Counted from the first letter of the stretch, positions 12,408 through 19,486 are shown. The stretch is DNA of 64,000 nucleotides from Planctomycetota bacterium (GCA_031409275.1 JANNXA010000051.1:256001-320000), one strand, 5' to 3'. The notes: generated from the sequence alone by a model not told the origin. A program made the numbers and translations.

Positions 12408-13202
12408 CTACGCCTGCAGTCCGTCGAGTTCGCGCTCGCTGAAGCCCGCGGCGAGGCGGCCGGCGCGATCGAGCGGCGCGGCGGCGGCGCGGCGCGGTCG
12501 CAACGGCCGCGCGAGCGCGAGGAAGTGCGTCTCGGCATCGAGCCCGCGCCGCGCGCAGGCGTGGCGATGCCAGCGGGTGCCGATCGCCACGTGGCCGATC
12601 TCGTCGCGGTAGATGCGATCGAGCAGCGTGGCCGACTCCGCATCGCCGGCCGCGCGCAGCTCGAGACGCAGCTTCGCCGAAACGTCGAGCCCCTTCGCCT
12701 CCAGGACGCGCGGCACGATCGCGAGGCGGTCGACCAGCTCCGGAAAGCGCGTCGCCGTCTCCCACAGCCCGAGGTGCAGCGGCTCCTCGCCGAGCTCGCC
12801 GCCGAGCTCGCGCAGCCGCCCCAGCAGCAGACGGGCGTGAAGCGCCTCCTCGCCCGCGATGCGCAGCATGTCGCGGTAGTAGTCGCGCTCCTCGCCAGGG
12901 AACTCGCCCACCGCCAGCAACGCGAGTTCGATCGCGCACAGCTCGATGTGGGCGACCGAATGGAGCAGCGAGCGGCGCCCGCGAGGATCGCGCAGATCGG
13001 CGCGACGGCGCGTGCTCAACGACCCGGTGACCACGACTTGCGGTGGACGCGCCGGACGCTGCGATGGGCCGCGCTCGAACGCGGGATCGAGCGCGCCGAC
13101 GCGAGCCGCGGAGCACAGCGCGTCCGCGGCCGCGATCTTGCGCTCGAGGTCCGGTTCGGCGAGGACGGCGGCGACGTCGGCGGCGAGACCGGTCGCGCTC
13201 AT
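12408..13202 (-). CDS. Ferritin-like di-iron protein, DUF455 family
   Basis: 'LHSVAHIELCAIEL', 'EEALH', 'VPRVLEAKGLD', 'IYRDEIGHVAIG' ExxH motifs. ATGA-coupled to the upstream ADH. Confidence 0.85.
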   Translation of the reverse strand: MSATGLAADVAAVLAEPDLERKIAAADALCSAARVGALDPAFERGPSQRPARPPQVVVTGSLSTRRRADLRDPRGRRSLLHSVAHIELCAIELALLAVGEFPGEERDYYRDMLRIAGEEALHARLLLGRLRELGGELGEEPLHLGLWETATRFPELVDRLAIVPRVLEAKGLDVSAKLRLELRAAGDAESATLLDRIYRDEIGHVAIGTRWHRHACARRGLDAETHFLALARPLRPRRAAAAPLDRAGRLAAGFSERELDGLQA

Positions 13203-14197
13203 GCGAGCGGGGTGCTTGCGTGACTCGACGAGACGTCGATGACGACCTTCAAGATTCCAGGCTGCGCCGCATGGGCAAGCGCCGCCGCGGCCTCCGCCAG
13301 CGGATAACGCGCGACGATCAGCGCGGTCGGGTCGACGAAGCCCTCGCGCATGGCGGCGAGCGCCGGGCCGAAGGCGCCGCAGCGCGAGCCGATCAGCGTG
13401 ATCTCGTCGACCACGAGGGCCGCGAGCGAGAGCGTGGACGCCGTTTCGGTGGTGGTCTTCAGGACCAGCGTGCCGCGTGGCGCGACGCGCGCGAGCGCGT
13501 GGCCGACGACGTCGGCGCGGCCGCTCGCTTCGACCACCAGCTCGTGGCGCGCGTGCGGCGAACGGGCGAACGGCGTGGTGCCGTCGACGAGCGGCTCGCC
13601 CAGATGGAGCGCGCCCGTCGGCAGCAGCGGCGCCCGCTCGGGATGGCGGCCCGCCACCAGCACGGCGACGCCATGCAACGCGAGCGCGTGCGCGCAGAGG
13701 ATCCCGAGCCGACCGTCCCCCACCACCAGCGCGCTGCGCACGCTGCCGAGGTCGACCTGATCCGCGATGGCGAAGGCGGCCGCGAGCGGCTCGGTGAAGA
13801 GCGCCGCGTCGTCGCTGATCTCGGGCGGAAGCGGGTGGAGGTTCGAGGTCGGGAGCGACAGCTGCTCGGCGAAGGCGCCCGCGCGGCCGAGGATTCCCAG
13901 GACCGTGCGAGTCGCGCAATGACGCTCGCGACCGTTGCGACAGCGATCGCAGCGCCCGCAACTCGCGTTGATCTCGCCGACCACGCGTTGGCCGGCGAGC
14001 GGCCCATCCAGCGCCACGCCGACGAACTCGTGGCCCGGCACGCCAGCGAATCCCATGTAGCCGCGCAGCAGCGCGAGGTCGGTGGCGCAGATGCCGGCGG
14101 CGCGCACCGCCACGCGCGTCTCGTTCGCGACGGAGGCGGGTCGCTCGACGTCGTCGCGCACCGTCGCCCGGCCGCCGCCGATCACCAGCGCGCGCAT
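13199..14197 (-). CDS. Zn-dependent alcohol dehydrogenase-like (MDR) protein
   Basis: GICATD, GHEFVG, CxxCxxC-x7-C structural Zn site, EPLAAA, GDGRLG, GSRCG. Confidence 0.9.
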   Translation of the reverse strand: MRALVIGGGRATVRDDVERPASVANETRVAVRAAGICATDLALLRGYMGFAGVPGHEFVGVALDGPLAGQRVVGEINASCGRCDRCRNGRERHCATRTVLGILGRAGAFAEQLSLPTSNLHPLPPEISDDAALFTEPLAAAFAIADQVDLGSVRSALVVGDGRLGILCAHALALHGVAVLVAGRHPERAPLLPTGALHLGEPLVDGTTPFARSPHARHELVVEASGRADVVGHALARVAPRGTLVLKTTTETASTLSLAALVVDEITLIGSRCGAFGPALAAMREGFVDPTALIVARYPLAEAAAALAHAAQPGILKVVIDVSSSHASTPLA

Positions 14198-14210: not shown

Positions 14211-14441
14211 TCAGCGACCGACAGCCTTGAGCAGCGCCTTCGGGTCGTAGCCGACCATCACCTTGCCGTCGACGACGATGGTCGGAGTGCTCATCGAGCC
14301 GAGTTCGAGCAGCTGCTCCTGCACGCCGTCGTCGGCGACGTTGCGCGACTCGAACGGCACGCCCACCTTCTTCAGCAGCTCCATCGCGGCGTGGCACGGA
14401 CCGCAGCCGGGCGACGTGTAGACGATCACTGAATTGGCCAT
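14211..14441 (-). CDS. Glutaredoxin/NrdH-like redoxin (CGPC), copy 3
   Basis: MANSVIVYTSPGCGPCHAAM..STPTIVVDG. Strong SD AAAGGAGG 4 nt upstream of ATG 14441. Confidence 0.9.
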   Translation of the reverse strand: MANSVIVYTSPGCGPCHAAMELLKKVGVPFESRNVADDGVQEQLLELGSMSTPTIVVDGKVMVGYDPKALLKAVGR

Positions 14442-14469
14442 GGTGCCTCCTTTGACGACGGATGCGCGC

Positions 14470-14703
14470 TCAGCCCTTGACGAGCTGAAGCAGGCGCTGC
14501 GGATTGAAGCCAACCATCATCTGTCCGTCGACGAGAATCGTCGGCGTGCTGCTCGATCCGAGCGCGGCGAGCTCCTCGCCCGCCTGCTCATCGCTCGCGA
14601 CGTCCTTGGCGATGAACGGGATCTTCTGCGCCGTCAGGAACTCCATGGCGCGATGGCACGGCGGGCAACCGGGCTGGTGGTAGACGACGATCTTCTTGTT
14701 CAC
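14470..14703 (-). CDS. Glutaredoxin/NrdH-like redoxin (CPPC), copy 2
   Basis: VVYHQPGCPPCHRAMEFL..STPTILVDG. SD GAGGAG upstream of GTG. Confidence 0.92.
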   Translation of the reverse strand: MNKKIVVYHQPGCPPCHRAMEFLTAQKIPFIAKDVASDEQAGEELAALGSSSTPTILVDGQMMVGFNPQRLLQLVKG

Positions 14704-14709
14704 AGGGGT

Positions 14710-14801
14710 CTCCTCGATGAGCTCCTGCGGAGGAGCCAGGAATGAACGAGCGGGGCGGCAACCATTGCGATGGTCGCAGCACCCCGCTCTCCCTGCGAGG
14801 G
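14710..14801 (-). promoter_or_regulatory. Structured intergenic RNA between the Sec and Cys redoxin genes (possible attenuator or translational switch)
   Basis: Hairpins CCCU-CGC-AGGG (14791-14801), an 18-bp stem with a 2-nt bulge and CGCA loop (14748-14789), and GCUCCU-CCGC-AGGAGC (14721-14736). The CUCCUC of the last is also complementary to the SD GAGGAG (14710-14715). Confidence 0.45.
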
Positions 14802-14812
14802 GATCCCGTCGA

Positions 14813-15046
14813 TCAGCTCTTGGCGAGCTGGAGCAGCCGCTGCGGGTTGAAACCCACCAGCATCTGCCCGTCGATCACGATGGTCGGCGTGCTCATCGAC
14901 CCGAGGGCCATCAGCTCTTCCGCCGCCTTCTCGTCGACCGTCACGTCCTTCTCGACGAACGGGATGTTCTGCTGCGATAGAAACTCCATCGCGCGGTGGC
15001 ACGGGGGTCAGCCAGGCTGGTGGTAGACGACGATGTTCTTCGCCAT
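14813..15046 (-). CDS. Selenocysteine-containing glutaredoxin/NrdH-like redoxin (U-P-P-C), copy 1; not in the ORF track
   Basis: Translates MAKNIVVYHQPG-U(TGA 15010-15008)-PPCHRAMEFLSQQNIPFVEKDVTVDEKAAEELMALGSMSTPTIVIDGQMLVGFNPQRLLQLAKS. It is 58/77 identical by hand alignment to copy 2, with TGA exactly at the N-terminal Cys, and has a downstream SECIS-like hairpin. Confidence 0.9.
14974..14992 (-). promoter_or_regulatory. Bacterial SECIS-like hairpin of the seleno-glutaredoxin
   Basis: GCGAUGG-AGUUU-CUAUCGC is a 7-bp stem starting 16 nt after UGA. It depends on AT-ending codons TTT and CTA, whereas the Cys paralog uses TTC CTG and lacks the stem. Confidence 0.75.
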
Positions 15047-15252
15047 GACGGCGGGGGCCTCGATGTTGGATTGCGAACGGGCCCCTCGCTCGCACGATGC
15101 GGGCGGCGGCCACTGGAGGGCGAGCACGATAGCGCCGACGCCATGCCGTCGGATCGCAAGGGCTGCTCTCCCGGGGATCCATGCCGCAGGTCGGTCGGCG
15201 GTTTCGAAGCGCCACTTGCCCGGGGCGCTGGGCCGACGTCAGATGCGCCGCG

Positions 15253-16124: not shown

Positions 16125-18617
16125 TCAGTGGTGCGGCGCGCCGCCGCCCTGCCCCACCACCGGCAGCAGCTTCACCGCCCCCTTCGCGTCGCCACCGAAC
16201 GACAGCGTGTCCATCGGGCAGACCGTGACGCAGATGCCGCAGCCGATGCAGCTCGACGTCGCGTTGTCGAGCACGTCCTGCTTCAGCGCGTACTGCATCA
16301 CGGGGATGCCGACCTGGCAATTGCGACTGCACTCGCCGCACGCGATGCACTTGTCGTTGGAAACGATCTTGAACCGGCTCCAACCCATGCGGGCGTAGAA
16401 GGCCGAGAGGTACTGCATCAACTTGGCGAGCGGGCACCAGAAGCGGCACCACACCTTGCCGCCGAGGAACGGATAGAGCGTCACCGGCAGGATGCCCACC
16501 AACCAGACATCGGCGACGACGCGATAGAGCCGCATCCCGAACTCAGCCTTGTTGTTCCAGAAGCCGTAGTCGGTGCCGCCGAAGTTCACCGCGCCGAGCA
16601 GATGGAAGCCGTCCCGCATCAGCATCAGCAGCGTCACCACGAACGCGGCGATCAGGATGAAGAGCCCCATCATCTCGTAGCGGATCGAGCCCTTGCCTTT
16701 GGGCGCGAGATGACGCCAACGGTCGCCGAAGGTCTCGGCGAGGCCGCCGCACCCGCAGATCCAGGAGCAGTAGCGCTTGCCCTGGAACACCACCAGCAGC
16801 GGGATCACGACGCAGGTCAGCAGCACGCCCCACACGACCCACACCTGATGGGGCTGATAGAAGAACGAATAGAAGAAGAGCGGCCACGCATAGACGACGC
16901 CGTAGCTGCGCCACGCTTGATCGGCGAAGGTCGGATCGTTGGCAAGCTGCGTCCCGACCCACTGGTACTTCACCGCCCACTGGAAGAGGAACTCGGGCAC
17001 CAGGAAGAACATCACCCACTGGAACGAGAGCAATGACGTGTAGCGCCAGACCTGGAAGCGATCCTTGCGCTCGAGGCCCCAGCGCTTCAGCGCGCGCAGC
17101 CCGAAGACGGTCATCAGCGACGTGTAGAGGACCGTGTACCAGAACGACCAGCCGCGATCGGCGAAGCTGAGCGCCTGGTAGCCCCATCCGGTGTAGGGCC
17201 AGAACTCATCCTTGCCGCTGGTATCGGCCTTCACGCCGTAGATCGAGTACCAGACCAGGAACGACAGCGAGAGCCACGACCAGCGGTCTCCCCTCGCGCC
17301 GGTTCGCACCAGCGTGCCCACCGCCGCCGCGGTCAGCGCGAGCCCTCCCCACCACGGAACGAAGTCGAGCGCGATGCCGCTGCCGTCGCCGAAATGGAAG
17401 GTCTGGGCGATCCACGACGCGCCAAACCAGGTGAAGCGCGCTTGTCCACCGAAGTGCTGGCCGAGCCAGAGGATCCCGAACAGCGCCGCCACGGCGAGCA
17501 GCAGCGCCCGCAGCGGCCGCCCGCTCCACTCGTTCTCGAGCCTAATGCCGAGCGACTTCAGGAACGCCACCGGCAACTCGGCGCCAATCAGGACGAACGC
17601 GTGGCGGGTCGGGACGACGCGCTCCTCGCGATGGCCGCCGCGATCGACGACCAGCGTCGCTTCGCCGGCCCGGAACTCCTTCACCTCGCTGTTCAGCGCC
17701 ACCTCGATGCGCTTCTGAGCGATGGCGGCGTCGAGCTGACGTTGGTTCTCCTTGAAGACGCGCGCGAACTCGCTGCCGCGGTAGGAGAGGACCACCTTGT
17801 TCTTCTCGGCGAGCGTCAGCGCCGCCTCGATCGCGCTGTTGCCGCCGCCCACGACCAGCAGCGATTCACCGACGTATTTCCGCGGCGAGTAGAGGCGGTG
17901 ATAGACGTGGCCAAGCTCCTCGCCCGGCACGTTCAGCTTGCGCGGATTGCCGCGCTGCCCGGTCGCCAGCACGATCTTCTTCGCGCGGTAGCTCCCCTTC
18001 GGCGTCGTCGCGACGAAGTGGCCGTCCTTCTTCTGGAGCTTGGTGAGCGGCTCCTCGGTGCGCACTTCGAGCGCGTTGTCGCGCACGATCTGGTGCCACC
18101 GTTGCACCAGTTCCTCCTTCTGCGCGCCATCGAGCCACAGCTTGCCCTTCGGCGGCACGCTGTCGGGCTCGGCGTAGACCCACTTCCCCTCCGGGAACTG
18201 GTCGATCGTGTTGGCGATGCGCTCCTTCTCGAGCACGACGCACTTCCAGCCGCGCTCCTTCGCCGCCAGCGCGGCGTTCAGCCCCGATGCGCCCGCGCCG
18301 ATCACCAGCACGTCGAGCAGCGTCGCGTCGGTCGCCGCGGCCGGCTTCGCCATCTCGGGTCGTGTCGCGATCCAGTCGATCACTTCGACGCCCTGCGCCA
18401 TCGCGAGCTTGATCACCGGCGCGCCGGCGAGGTCACCGATCACGTGGAGGCCCGGCACGCTCGATTCGTTGCCGGAATGCAGCTCGGGGCGGCGCGAATC
18501 ACCGTTGCCGCTTTCGAGGATCAGCTGCAGCGAATCGCGCAGCTGCTTGGGCGCGAAGCGCTGCCACAGCGGCGCTCGAGCGGGCGGCGTGGCGGCCGGG
18601 GTCGTGGTCGCGCTCAC
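16125..18617 (-). CDS. FAD/NAD(P)H pyridine-nucleotide oxidoreductase fused to a NapH/RdxA-like membrane polyferredoxin (about 830 aa)
   Basis: GAGASG, ATG..PRKL.VPGE and GGGNSA motifs, then multiple TM segments, CSWICGCG, CRFWCP and two CxxCxxCxxxC(Q/P) motifs. GTG 18617 overlaps the upstream TGA. Confidence 0.85.
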   Translation of the reverse strand: MSATTTPAATPPARAPLWQRFAPKQLRDSLQLILESGNGDSRRPELHSGNESSVPGLHVIGDLAGAPVIKLAMAQGVEVIDWIATRPEMAKPAAATDATLLDVLVIGAGASGLNAALAAKERGWKCVVLEKERIANTIDQFPEGKWVYAEPDSVPPKGKLWLDGAQKEELVQRWHQIVRDNALEVRTEEPLTKLQKKDGHFVATTPKGSYRAKKIVLATGQRGNPRKLNVPGEELGHVYHRLYSPRKYVGESLLVVGGGNSAIEAALTLAEKNKVVLSYRGSEFARVFKENQRQLDAAIAQKRIEVALNSEVKEFRAGEATLVVDRGGHREERVVPTRHAFVLIGAELPVAFLKSLGIRLENEWSGRPLRALLLAVAALFGILWLGQHFGGQARFTWFGASWIAQTFHFGDGSGIALDFVPWWGGLALTAAAVGTLVRTGARGDRWSWLSLSFLVWYSIYGVKADTSGKDEFWPYTGWGYQALSFADRGWSFWYTVLYTSLMTVFGLRALKRWGLERKDRFQVWRYTSLLSFQWVMFFLVPEFLFQWAVKYQWVGTQLANDPTFADQAWRSYGVVYAWPLFFYSFFYQPHQVWVVWGVLLTCVVIPLLVVFQGKRYCSWICGCGGLAETFGDRWRHLAPKGKGSIRYEMMGLFILIAAFVVTLLMLMRDGFHLLGAVNFGGTDYGFWNNKAEFGMRLYRVVADVWLVGILPVTLYPFLGGKVWCRFWCPLAKLMQYLSAFYARMGWSRFKIVSNDKCIACGECSRNCQVGIPVMQYALKQDVLDNATSSCIGCGICVTVCPMDTLSFGGDAKGAVKLLPVVGQGGGAPHH

Positions 18618-19294
18618 GAAGGGCTCCTGCCGAGACCGCGCATCGATTCGCTCTCCGAGCTCTTCAGGCGCGCGCCGCAGCCGACGCACGCGCGCGCATT
18701 GGGGTGGTTGACGCCGCCGCAGGCCGCGCAGGCGACCGGAGCGTGCGTCAGCGGGATCTTGCCCAGCCCGCCTGGCATGCCGCCTGGCACTTGCGAGAGA
18801 TCGCCGCGCGGAAGCATGGCGACGCGAGCGACGGCGACGACGTTGAAGGCGAGACCGGCCAGCAACCAGGGCAATGGCGTGAGTCCCTTGCTGAGCGCAA
18901 GGTAGGCCGCCCACGCGCCGCAGAGCAATCCAACGACGACGTAGCTGCCGAACCAGAACCAGCCCGACAAGAGCGAGCGCTCGTCCGACGCCTTGGTCGC
19001 CGCCTCGTCGAACAGGGCGCCGCGCGCCTGCTGACCGGCGAACAACTCCTCTCGTTCGAGGTCCCAATGCGCCTCGCACGCGGGCGAACAGACGCCGACC
19101 GTGCGACCGCGGTAGACGATGTGGCGTCCTGCCGTCGCGCCACCGCAGGCGATGCAGCGCTCTGCGGCGGAAGCGGCGGAGGCGGTGCCTTGGGCGCGGC
19201 CGCTGCCGGCGAAGGCCAGCGACGCCAAGAGCAGCGGTGCCAGCAGTCTCAGCAGTCGACCCAACCGGCTCCGTGCAACTCCTCGACGATGCAT
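18614..19294 (-). CDS. Membrane protein with N-terminal YHS/TRASH-like Cys motif and C-terminal zinc ribbon
   Basis: SD GGAGGAGG before ATG 19294, signal-like N-terminus, 'CIACGG..YRGRTVGVCSPAC', two TM segments, 'CAACG..CVGCG'. Confidence 0.7.
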   Translation of the reverse strand: MHRRGVARSRLGRLLRLLAPLLLASLAFAGSGRAQGTASAASAAERCIACGGATAGRHIVYRGRTVGVCSPACEAHWDLEREELFAGQQARGALFDEAATKASDERSLLSGWFWFGSYVVVGLLCGAWAAYLALSKGLTPLPWLLAGLAFNVVAVARVAMLPRGDLSQVPGGMPGGLGKIPLTHAPVACAACGGVNHPNARACVGCGARLKSSESESMRGLGRSPS

Positions 19295-19307
19295 GCAACC
19301 TCCTCCT

Positions 19308-19486
19308 AGCAGCCCGTTGGAGAACTCCCCGTGTCGCCTGGCGGCGTCTTTCAAGCCGGTCCTTCGTTGGAGTCAGAACGTGCTTCGCAACTCGACAACT
19401 CACAGGGGAGTTGGCTTCGAACCTCCTCCTCGTCCCGACTCGAAATCCGCTCGCCAGACTCGCGGTGACTTCTCCAACGGGCTGCT
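19308..19486. mobile_element. MITE-like non-autonomous element (179 bp)
   Basis: Perfect 17-bp terminal inverted repeats AGCAGCCCGTTGGAGAA (19308-19324) and TTCTCCAACGGGCTGCT (19470-19486), imperfect subterminal IR, CTAG/CTCG at the junctions, lower GC, no transposase. Confidence 0.72.

Follow-up and report, generated by a model that had tools for sequence, protein, structure and literature searches.

Three small redoxin genes stand in tandem on one DNA strand, and the first has an in-frame TGA (UGA in the messenger) that aligns with the catalytic cysteine of its homologs. The locus raises two questions: is this codon read as selenocysteine (Sec) and, if so, why does a selenoenzyme stand directly beside cysteine versions of itself? 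We addressed both in a 64,000-nucleotide stretch of a Planctomycetota bacterium (GCA_031409275.1, JANNXA010000051.1:256001-320000), called here the window. Its source genome (G000) measures 5.59 Mb, with 69% G+C, and is 92.9% complete.

The three genes lie on the minus strand with the active sites U-P-P-C, C-P-P-C and C-G-P-C, just as a first-pass annotation of this DNA had proposed (Table 1). Gene 1 reads MAKNIVVYHQPG-TGA-PPC over 77 codons; its terminal TGA was considered as a second Sec codon and rejected, since no stop follows within three codons if it is read as U. The same annotation had counted 58 identities in 77 residues between genes 1 and 2, on both sides of the TGA, and recomputation returned this figure (10/12 before the TGA and 48/64 after it; 183/234 nucleotides). 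Only one of the 19 positions at which gene 2 differs, U13C, falls within residues 5-23. Gene 3 shares 37 residues with gene 1, U being counted as C, and 38 with gene 2, and all three genes pass the Pfam Glutaredoxin profile PF00462 (58.8, 50.7 and 57.6 bits for genes 1, 2 and 3, against a cut-off of 22.9).

Table 1. Features of the redoxin array and its downstream neighbours, in window coordinates.
Feature	Position	Strand	Basis
Gene 1: 77-aa small redoxin, U-P-P-C, putative Sec at residue 13	14813..15046	-	Pfam and model
In-frame TGA, codon 13, nucleophilic position of CxxC, PG-U-PPC context	15008..15010	-	Sequence and relatives
Predicted bSECIS hairpin	14974..14992	-	7-8 bp stem, GUU apical loop, -8.9 kcal/mol
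GAGG, likely gene 1 ribosome-binding site	15058..15061	-	Similarly placed GAGG in same-genus relatives
Gene 1-2 spacer, 109 nt: long G+C hairpin (14789-14748) and second hairpin	14704..14812	-	Folding
GAGGAG, likely gene 2 ribosome-binding site	14710..14715	-	Sequence
Gene 2: 77-aa Cys paralog, C-P-P-C, GTG start	14470..14703	-	Sequence, selection
AAGGAGG, likely gene 3 ribosome-binding site	14446..14452	-	Sequence
Gene 3: 76-aa diverged Cys paralog, T-x3-C-G-P-C	14211..14441	-	Sequence, selection
Zn-dependent alcohol dehydrogenase-like gene (ADH), 13 nt behind gene 3	13199..14197	-	Profile matches
DUF455 gene, conserved in this family downstream of the redoxin slot	12408..13202	-	Profile and relatives

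The UGA of gene 1 and its hairpin

The Sec reading advanced by the first-pass annotation is strongly supported by the machinery, by the conservation of the TGA and by a covarying hairpin, and from these sequence comparisons we consider the recoding of this codon close to certain. The genes selA, selB, selC and selD are all present in G000: selA and selB score 484 and 334 bits in a profile search (cut-offs 268 and 242), selD, which has an in-frame TGA of its own, scores 338.5 against 125, and the tRNA-Sec gene (selC) scores 76 against 47, its anticodon being given as tca by ARAGORN. The TGA stands at the same codon in 3/3 same-genus genomes having gene 1 and in a metagenome contig (L064), it is conserved across genera and phyla, and the relatives show no decay downstream of it. 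In an independent 151-nt contig from a separate study (run X5), which spans 14894-15044, differences are listed just at 14993 and 14996 (contigs only, depth 4), and neither TGC nor TGT is seen at the codon.

Consensus bacterial SECIS elements (bSECIS) have a loop of 3-9 nt, a stem of 4-16 bp, a G in the first two loop positions, a distance of 16-37 nt from the UGA and an MFE of at most -7.5 (PMC13188914). The gene 1 hairpin, with its GUU loop, 8 bp, 23 nt after the UGA and -8.9 kcal/mol, lies within all of these bounds. When the pattern is loosened, it is found after 2.5% of the TGA triplets in six frames (2,417 of 98,622). Because the folding z-score of the 60-nt SECIS region is modest by itself (-1.56), the case for the element rests on comparison. 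With the structure taken from gene 1, and among kin that are not independent, 70/70 cells are paired in 11 Sec homologs (10 distinct) and two of the seven pairs have changed on both sides; none of 500 shuffles came as high, and slid controls gave 20-66%. The 14 Cys homologs have 57% of cells paired and no both-sided change. In a further phylum set, eight TGA homologs form 7, 7, 7, 7, 7, 5, 4 and 4 of the 7 pairs and ten Cys homologs 1-4, and gene 2 has a broken stem that keeps 4 of the 7 pairs. Gene 1 contains three rare sense codons, and two of them fall inside the hairpin, TTT22 (3.3% of Phe) and CTA23 (0.3% of Leu). Two Bacillaceae genomes (L050:4001-4219 and L051:4001-4219) have a UPPC BC3987-like redoxin, with CPPC in close relatives, and arrive at the same hairpin through compensatory changes. 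There is an exception: a Cys (TGT) CGPC homolog outside the set of 14 (L066:541-765) keeps a perfect 7-bp SECIS-type stem with an AGUAU loop, so the stem alone is not diagnostic of Sec. That hairpin is a possible relic of a recent Sec-to-Cys change.

A scan of the whole genome for TGA, hairpin and coding-like sequence returned 49 candidates, about 18 of which look by inspection like real selenoproteins, including SelD, MsrA, gene 1 and several UxxC thioredoxin-fold proteins. Gene 1 and MsrA are the only credible ones with a Cys paralog within 2 kb. At the MsrA locus (G000:C37:61263-62855, L103) a Cys MsrA domain is followed, about 1.15 kb on, by an MsrB-MsrA fusion that has GG-U-FW and begins like a signal peptide; a TAG also lies within the MsrA match there, and the other four same-genus genomes have one MsrA match each. 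Another TGA-plus-hairpin candidate, at G000:C51:318725 on the minus strand (about window 62,725), is a short CxxU protein (YCTA-U) that we take by its motif to be SelW/Rdx-like. Strong candidates that are not standard-redoxin-like are found in G000 at C14:295797, C34:64177, C43:63697, C23:25248, C6:2306 and C14:123038.

Identity and annotation of the proteins

The gene 1 model has a thioredoxin fold (pLDDT 92.9) and its best fold matches are BC3987 (TM 0.87-0.91) and cGrx1 (TM 0.91); the triplet proteins are BC3987/cGrx1-like small redoxins, not NrdH proper. The label 'NrdH-like' given at first pass holds for the fold and fails for NrdH itself. NrdH-redoxin and YruB proteins have the same compact fold and provide the best NCBIfam scores for gene 1, but none of genes 1-3 reaches an NCBIfam cut-off (YruB family TIGR02196: 78.4, 68.5 and 64.6 bits against 88.55; NrdH TIGR02194: 36-55 bits, with 55.4 for gene 1, against 85.75). 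Moreover, NrdH-redoxins are marked by an nrdHIEF operon and a CVQC-type motif (PMC3720550), whereas the triplet has neither the motif nor nrdIEF neighbours. A role as ribonucleotide reductase (RNR) partner was discarded, there being no nrd neighbours and a single RNR large subunit found, on another contig. The Uxx-star glutaredoxin-like selenoproteins (NF041212) are defined by a C-terminal U-x-x-stop, and the score for this family was 52.9 bits against a cut-off of 66.

The best PDB sequence match (E 2.4e-15) is cGrx1 of Clostridium (Alkaliphilus) oremlandii (PDB 7C10/7C12), a native selenoprotein that has been proposed to reduce Sec-MsrA and that shares with gene 1 its size, U13/C16 numbering and U-P-x-C motif, although the motif itself is UPHC there and UPPC here (PMC7642778, PMC4479559). 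We saw no description of tandem Cys copies for cGrx1. It has been described as GSH-reduced (PMC7642778), while gshB goes undetected in the triplet genome (best 22 bits against 299; at 92.9% completeness the gene could be unassembled). TrxR scores over its cut-off in G000 and, together with the undetected gshB, this favours TrxR as the electron donor. Sec-MsrA as a dedicated partner, by analogy with cGrx1, was also rejected, as there is no tight pairing (4/9 Sec-redoxin genomes and 1/9 Cys-only genomes). MsrA matches with an in-frame TGA occur in 5/20 genomes (G000, G001, G018, G026 and G034), the position of the TGA having been checked in G000 only.

Bacillus cereus BC3987 (PDB 3ZIJ/3ZIT), which gives the top fold matches at 44-46% identity, has CPPC and STPT motifs in common with the triplet protein, and both lie outside an nrdHIEF operon, BC3987 being a single Cys gene. 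It is a CPPC thioredoxin and a poor RNR donor, with peroxiredoxin as a suggested target, and its Thr8, four residues before the first Cys, enhances activity and tunes the buried Cys (PMC3720550). The C-P-P-C site of this type is CPPC in gene 2 and UPPC in gene 1, but gene 3 departs from it with CGPC. The Thr8 position is His in genes 1 and 2 and Thr is kept only in gene 3, whose chemistry probably differs because of this Thr and its CGPC.

According to the first-pass annotation, standard gene callers miss gene 1. This is true of its active site but not of the whole gene, since a 58-aa fragment from Met20, without redox motif, has been called on the window's own 420,808-nt contig (P0184, 100% identical). 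The 47 database matches to gene 1 comprise 19 proteins with CxxC, 27 fragments from Met20 and one 43-aa piece, with no full-length Sec form among them. All 27 fragments start MEFLS, the Ser codon of which forms the 3' arm of the hairpin, and 0/19 CxxC-bearing proteins have that Ser; the DNA behind the fragments was seen for five, and the TGA is there in 5/5. One such fragment (P0188) bears the NCBI name 'glutaredoxin family protein'. Truncation alone is no proof of Sec, because P0012, a Cys gene 2, is also called at 58 aa by NCBI. Three proteins (P0207, P0211 and P0174) look like chimeras with Sec-type starts and Cys-copy ends, a pattern that suggests recombination or collapse within the array. 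In the wider family, P0021, P0025 and P0026 are single proteins of 164-176 aa with two fused redoxin domains.

Distribution and history of the array

A redoxin match is found in 18 of the 42 genomes of the order, with three tandem copies in two of them (G000 and G004), a single Sec copy in seven and a single Cys copy in nine. A phylum sample gave matches in 35/401 genomes; the copies stand in tandem only in G000 and G004, and another three genomes carry two copies on separate contigs. A metagenome scan yielded 18 loci, 13 of them short chance matches, by a pattern that required a Cys codon and is blind to Sec-only loci. It contributed a complete U/C/C triplet with no ADH (L064) and a locus cut by the contig end (L065) that holds the 3' part of gene 1, genes 2 and 3, and the ADH, bringing the triplet to four loci of the lineage, three of them complete. 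Five further protein pairs, P0175/P0197, P0176/P0198, P0179/P0186, P0020/P0213 and P0181/P0007, each from one source and same-sized contig, are probably further arrays. Both selA and tRNA-Sec are present in each of the 19 relatives tested, selA over its cut-off in 17 and split over contigs in two, so the Cys-only states do not stem from loss of the machinery. Two or more selA matches are present in each of G012, G028 and G036, and two tRNA-Sec genes in G012 and G036.

In both this genus and the sister one, the redoxin slot has a metallophosphoesterase gene on one side and DUF455 on the other, and the triplet has metallophosphoesterase, ADH, DUF455 and EamA-like genes as neighbours. The DUF455 proteins flanking the arrays are 76-88% identical to that of the window (the L065 contig is short, with no DUF455 on it). 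A single Cys gene occupies the same syntenic slot in the sister-genus genomes G005 and G007; G003, which is 84% complete, has neither redoxin nor DUF455, and its blank is uninformative. Two neighbours were considered as parts of the system and rejected: the ADH, which is absent from the triplet locus L064 and found in 1/5 genomes searched, and, as a reductase, the FAD/4Fe-4S oxidoreductase encoded upstream (16125-18620, minus strand), which occurs in four same-genus loci but neither in L064 nor in either sister-genus locus. The latter unusually combines a YpdA/TrxR-like FAD domain with a membrane region and a NapH-type 4Fe-4S domain in one protein, 78-85% conserved in same-genus loci. Directly upstream of it, the ORF at 18614-19354 (minus strand) encodes a membrane protein that has several CxxC motifs and matches no Pfam profile at E 1e-6. 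Across 11 more distant loci the neighbours varied and no family-wide neighbour gene was seen; an S1/P1 nuclease gene lies beside a single Sec or Cys redoxin in four of them (L026, L030, L032 and L035, family f2).

With a simple counting method, whose dS estimates are coarse at a G+C content of 69%, pairwise dN/dS spans 0.03-0.07 in gene 1 (three pairs), 0.10-0.29 in gene 2 (six pairs) and 0.12-0.62 in gene 3 (six pairs). All 15 within-gene values are below 1 and, as judged from these comparisons, the array genes are under purifying selection. In the tree, gene 2 sits beside the Sec genes of the genus (85/86, unstarred) and gene 3 forms its own long clade (100/100), of unsure place, in which the motif T-x3-CGPC is conserved. 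Tandem duplication within this family is the likely origin of the Cys copies. AU tests rejected 0/5 alternative groupings (p 0.10-0.35), the best tree already groups gene 3 with the sister-genus Cys genes (70/89), and the flank tree does not show the triplet genomes as a single clade (p-AU 0.054). Under these tests the duplications may have followed either order, copies may have been gained or lost, and the change may have run from Sec to Cys or from Cys to Sec. Bacterial Sec-to-Cys change has been called rare and mostly limited to FdhA and SelD (2026 review, PMC13188914), and the redoxin family is a candidate exception.

Role of the cysteine copies and place among known selenoproteins

By established bSECIS decoding, SelB with Sec-tRNA would almost certainly recognise the hairpin, whose GUU loop starts 23 nt after the UGA, and place Sec at residue 13. 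Going by the thioredoxin fold, Sec13 would then very probably attack a target disulfide, with Cys16 resolving and a Se-S bond forming, and this bond would probably be re-reduced by thioredoxin reductase rather than glutathione. General cytoplasmic disulfide or peroxiredoxin recycling would be the likeliest role of gene 1. Each Cys copy, having its own ribosome-binding site, would add dithiol capacity whatever the selenium level, and gene 2 would cushion a selenium shortage without being induced by it. The overall reading that we favour, to which we give about an even chance, is that gene 1 very likely encodes a Sec redoxin, that genes 2 and 3 are intact and likely co-transcribed, and that gene 2 is a standing near-equivalent and gene 3 a specialised copy, neither of them a selenium-switched backup. 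Standing copies are favoured over the four alternatives considered below because of the layout of the array, the folding of the spacer and the accessible start of gene 2. In G000 the predicted cost of opening that start is 11.0 kcal/mol, no harder than average (control mean 10.5), and with its strong ribosome-binding site the start looks normally accessible in the folding model. The gene 1-2 spacer has a marked fold (z = -3.65, 0/200 shuffles) with predicted pairing over the gene 2 start; it was dismissed as a REP-like genomic repeat, having one weak 35-nt match elsewhere. A consensus scan, which is insensitive, found neither promoter nor terminator in the array.

Genes 2 and 3 could instead be turned up in selenium scarcity and replace gene 1, which we consider unlikely. 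This is the strong form of the idea of selenium-independent backups put forward in the first-pass annotation, for which the evidence is mixed. Such regulation has precedents: fdhF-Cys transcripts of Treponema primitia go up under selenium limitation (PMC3892789), the Cys homologs of Methanococcus maripaludis are repressed in selenium (PMC1273633), and inverse selenium regulation has been measured for the Sec/Cys isoenzymes of both (PMC3892789, PMC1273633, PMC11097638). Both organisms, like G000, have a Sec and a Cys version of one enzyme side by side in their genomes. The active-site surroundings are fully preserved in gene 2, G005 and G007 have a single Cys gene in the same syntenic slot, and MsrA provides a second adjacent Cys/Sec pair in G000. 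However, inverse regulation is a measured trait of those pairs and a putative one of the triplet, which consists of 8-kDa redoxins with the Cys copies directly downstream of the UGA. This layout is awkward for an induced backup, as the Cys genes follow the UGA and a Rho homolog is present in G000 (485.6 bits, just under the 509 cut-off); in T. primitia, selenium shortage lowers the transcript downstream of the UGA (PMC3892789). Gene 3 has a different motif (CGPC), no internal promoter was seen in the insensitive scan, and no inverse switch is apparent in the spacer, where the predicted effect has the opposite sign. Seven genomes keep the Sec copy only, and just gene 1 and MsrA, among the 49 candidates, are credible selenoproteins with a Cys paralog within 2 kb.

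That opposite effect leads to a converse proposal, in which only ribosomes reading through the UGA would get to the true stop of gene 1 and open an anti-Shine-Dalgarno helix that covers the start of gene 2, Rho polarity would act the same way, and the Cys copies would be made mainly with selenium. In three of the four loci, folding predicts that the gene 2 start is sequestered and released by the ribosome ending gene 1: with 12 nt covered past the gene 1 stop, the predicted relief is 7.6 kcal/mol in G004, 7.3 in L065 and 5.5 in L064, values as high being found in 3, 3 and 5 of 151 control spacers, although the controls come only from the window's own genome and the G004 and L065 spacers, nearly identical, count about once. 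Selenium-dependent polarity past a UGA in T. primitia (PMC3892789) and a model of coupling by RNA unfolding, documented at +52 nt spacing (PMC12548453), point the same way. But the relief in the window's genome is just 0.5 kcal/mol at 12 nt (58/151 controls as high) and 3.7 at 18 nt (9/151), it is close to zero in most cases when 6 nt are covered, the effect depending on the footprint assumed, and no compensatory changes are shown in the anti-Shine-Dalgarno helix. We hold such gating to be distinctly unlikely. Its most elaborate form, in which gene 1 would be selenoenzyme and sensor, the Cys genes selenium-induced partners with different redox chemistry, and recombination would enlarge the array and also reduce it to Sec-only or Cys-only states, strikes us as rather improbable.

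It is very doubtful that genes 2 and 3 are short-lived outcomes of tandem birth and death, under weak selection and with no distinct role. A single copy in 16/18 matching genomes of the order, the gene 3 dN/dS of up to 0.62 and the chimera-like database proteins P0207, P0211 and P0174 would fit such turnover. Yet at four loci, where the flanking DUF455 proteins show 76-88% identity to that of the window, every copy is intact and has a ribosome-binding site, none of the 15 within-gene dN/dS values reaches 1, and gene 3 has its own 100/100 clade and a conserved T-x3-CGPC. Finally, a pseudogene or sequencing error, with the TGA a real stop, is effectively refuted: TGC is one base away and adjacent Cys copies could cover the loss, but different genera and phyla keep the TGA together with a covarying hairpin, gene 1 shows the tightest conservation among the three genes (dN/dS 0.03-0.07), the Sec machinery is full and the independent contig agrees.

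Experimental support exists for Sec-glutaredoxin (PF00462, UxxC) as a prokaryotic selenoprotein (PMC13188914), and changes from Cys to Sec in Grx were already counted in 2006 (PMC1794560). Both Sec-glutaredoxins and Sec/Cys isoenzyme pairs are already known, and the recoding mechanism is ordinary. BSepDB, with about 58,000 genes (PMC13326102), may already hold triplet-type genes under Grx. The literature searched, with most subscription journals outside it, yielded no paper with 'UPPC' together with 'selenocysteine' and no description of a tandem Sec/Cys redoxin array. Gene 1 is almost certainly a genuine selenoprotein that belongs to a known class and has been mis-annotated, in a tandem layout that is conserved and apparently undescribed.

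With this finding the known Sec-glutaredoxins gain a UPPC branch that is widespread and mis-annotated. If the array were gated by selenium and also turned over by recombination, it would offer a route for repeated bacterial Sec-to-Cys change. With a 77-aa Sec enzyme beside a Cys twin that is 75% identical, the locus offers a natural experiment on why bacteria keep Sec; the proteins of genes 1 and 2 are small enough for direct expression and comparison, and the Sec-only and Cys-only relatives, all with Sec machinery, allow the retention of Sec to be compared.
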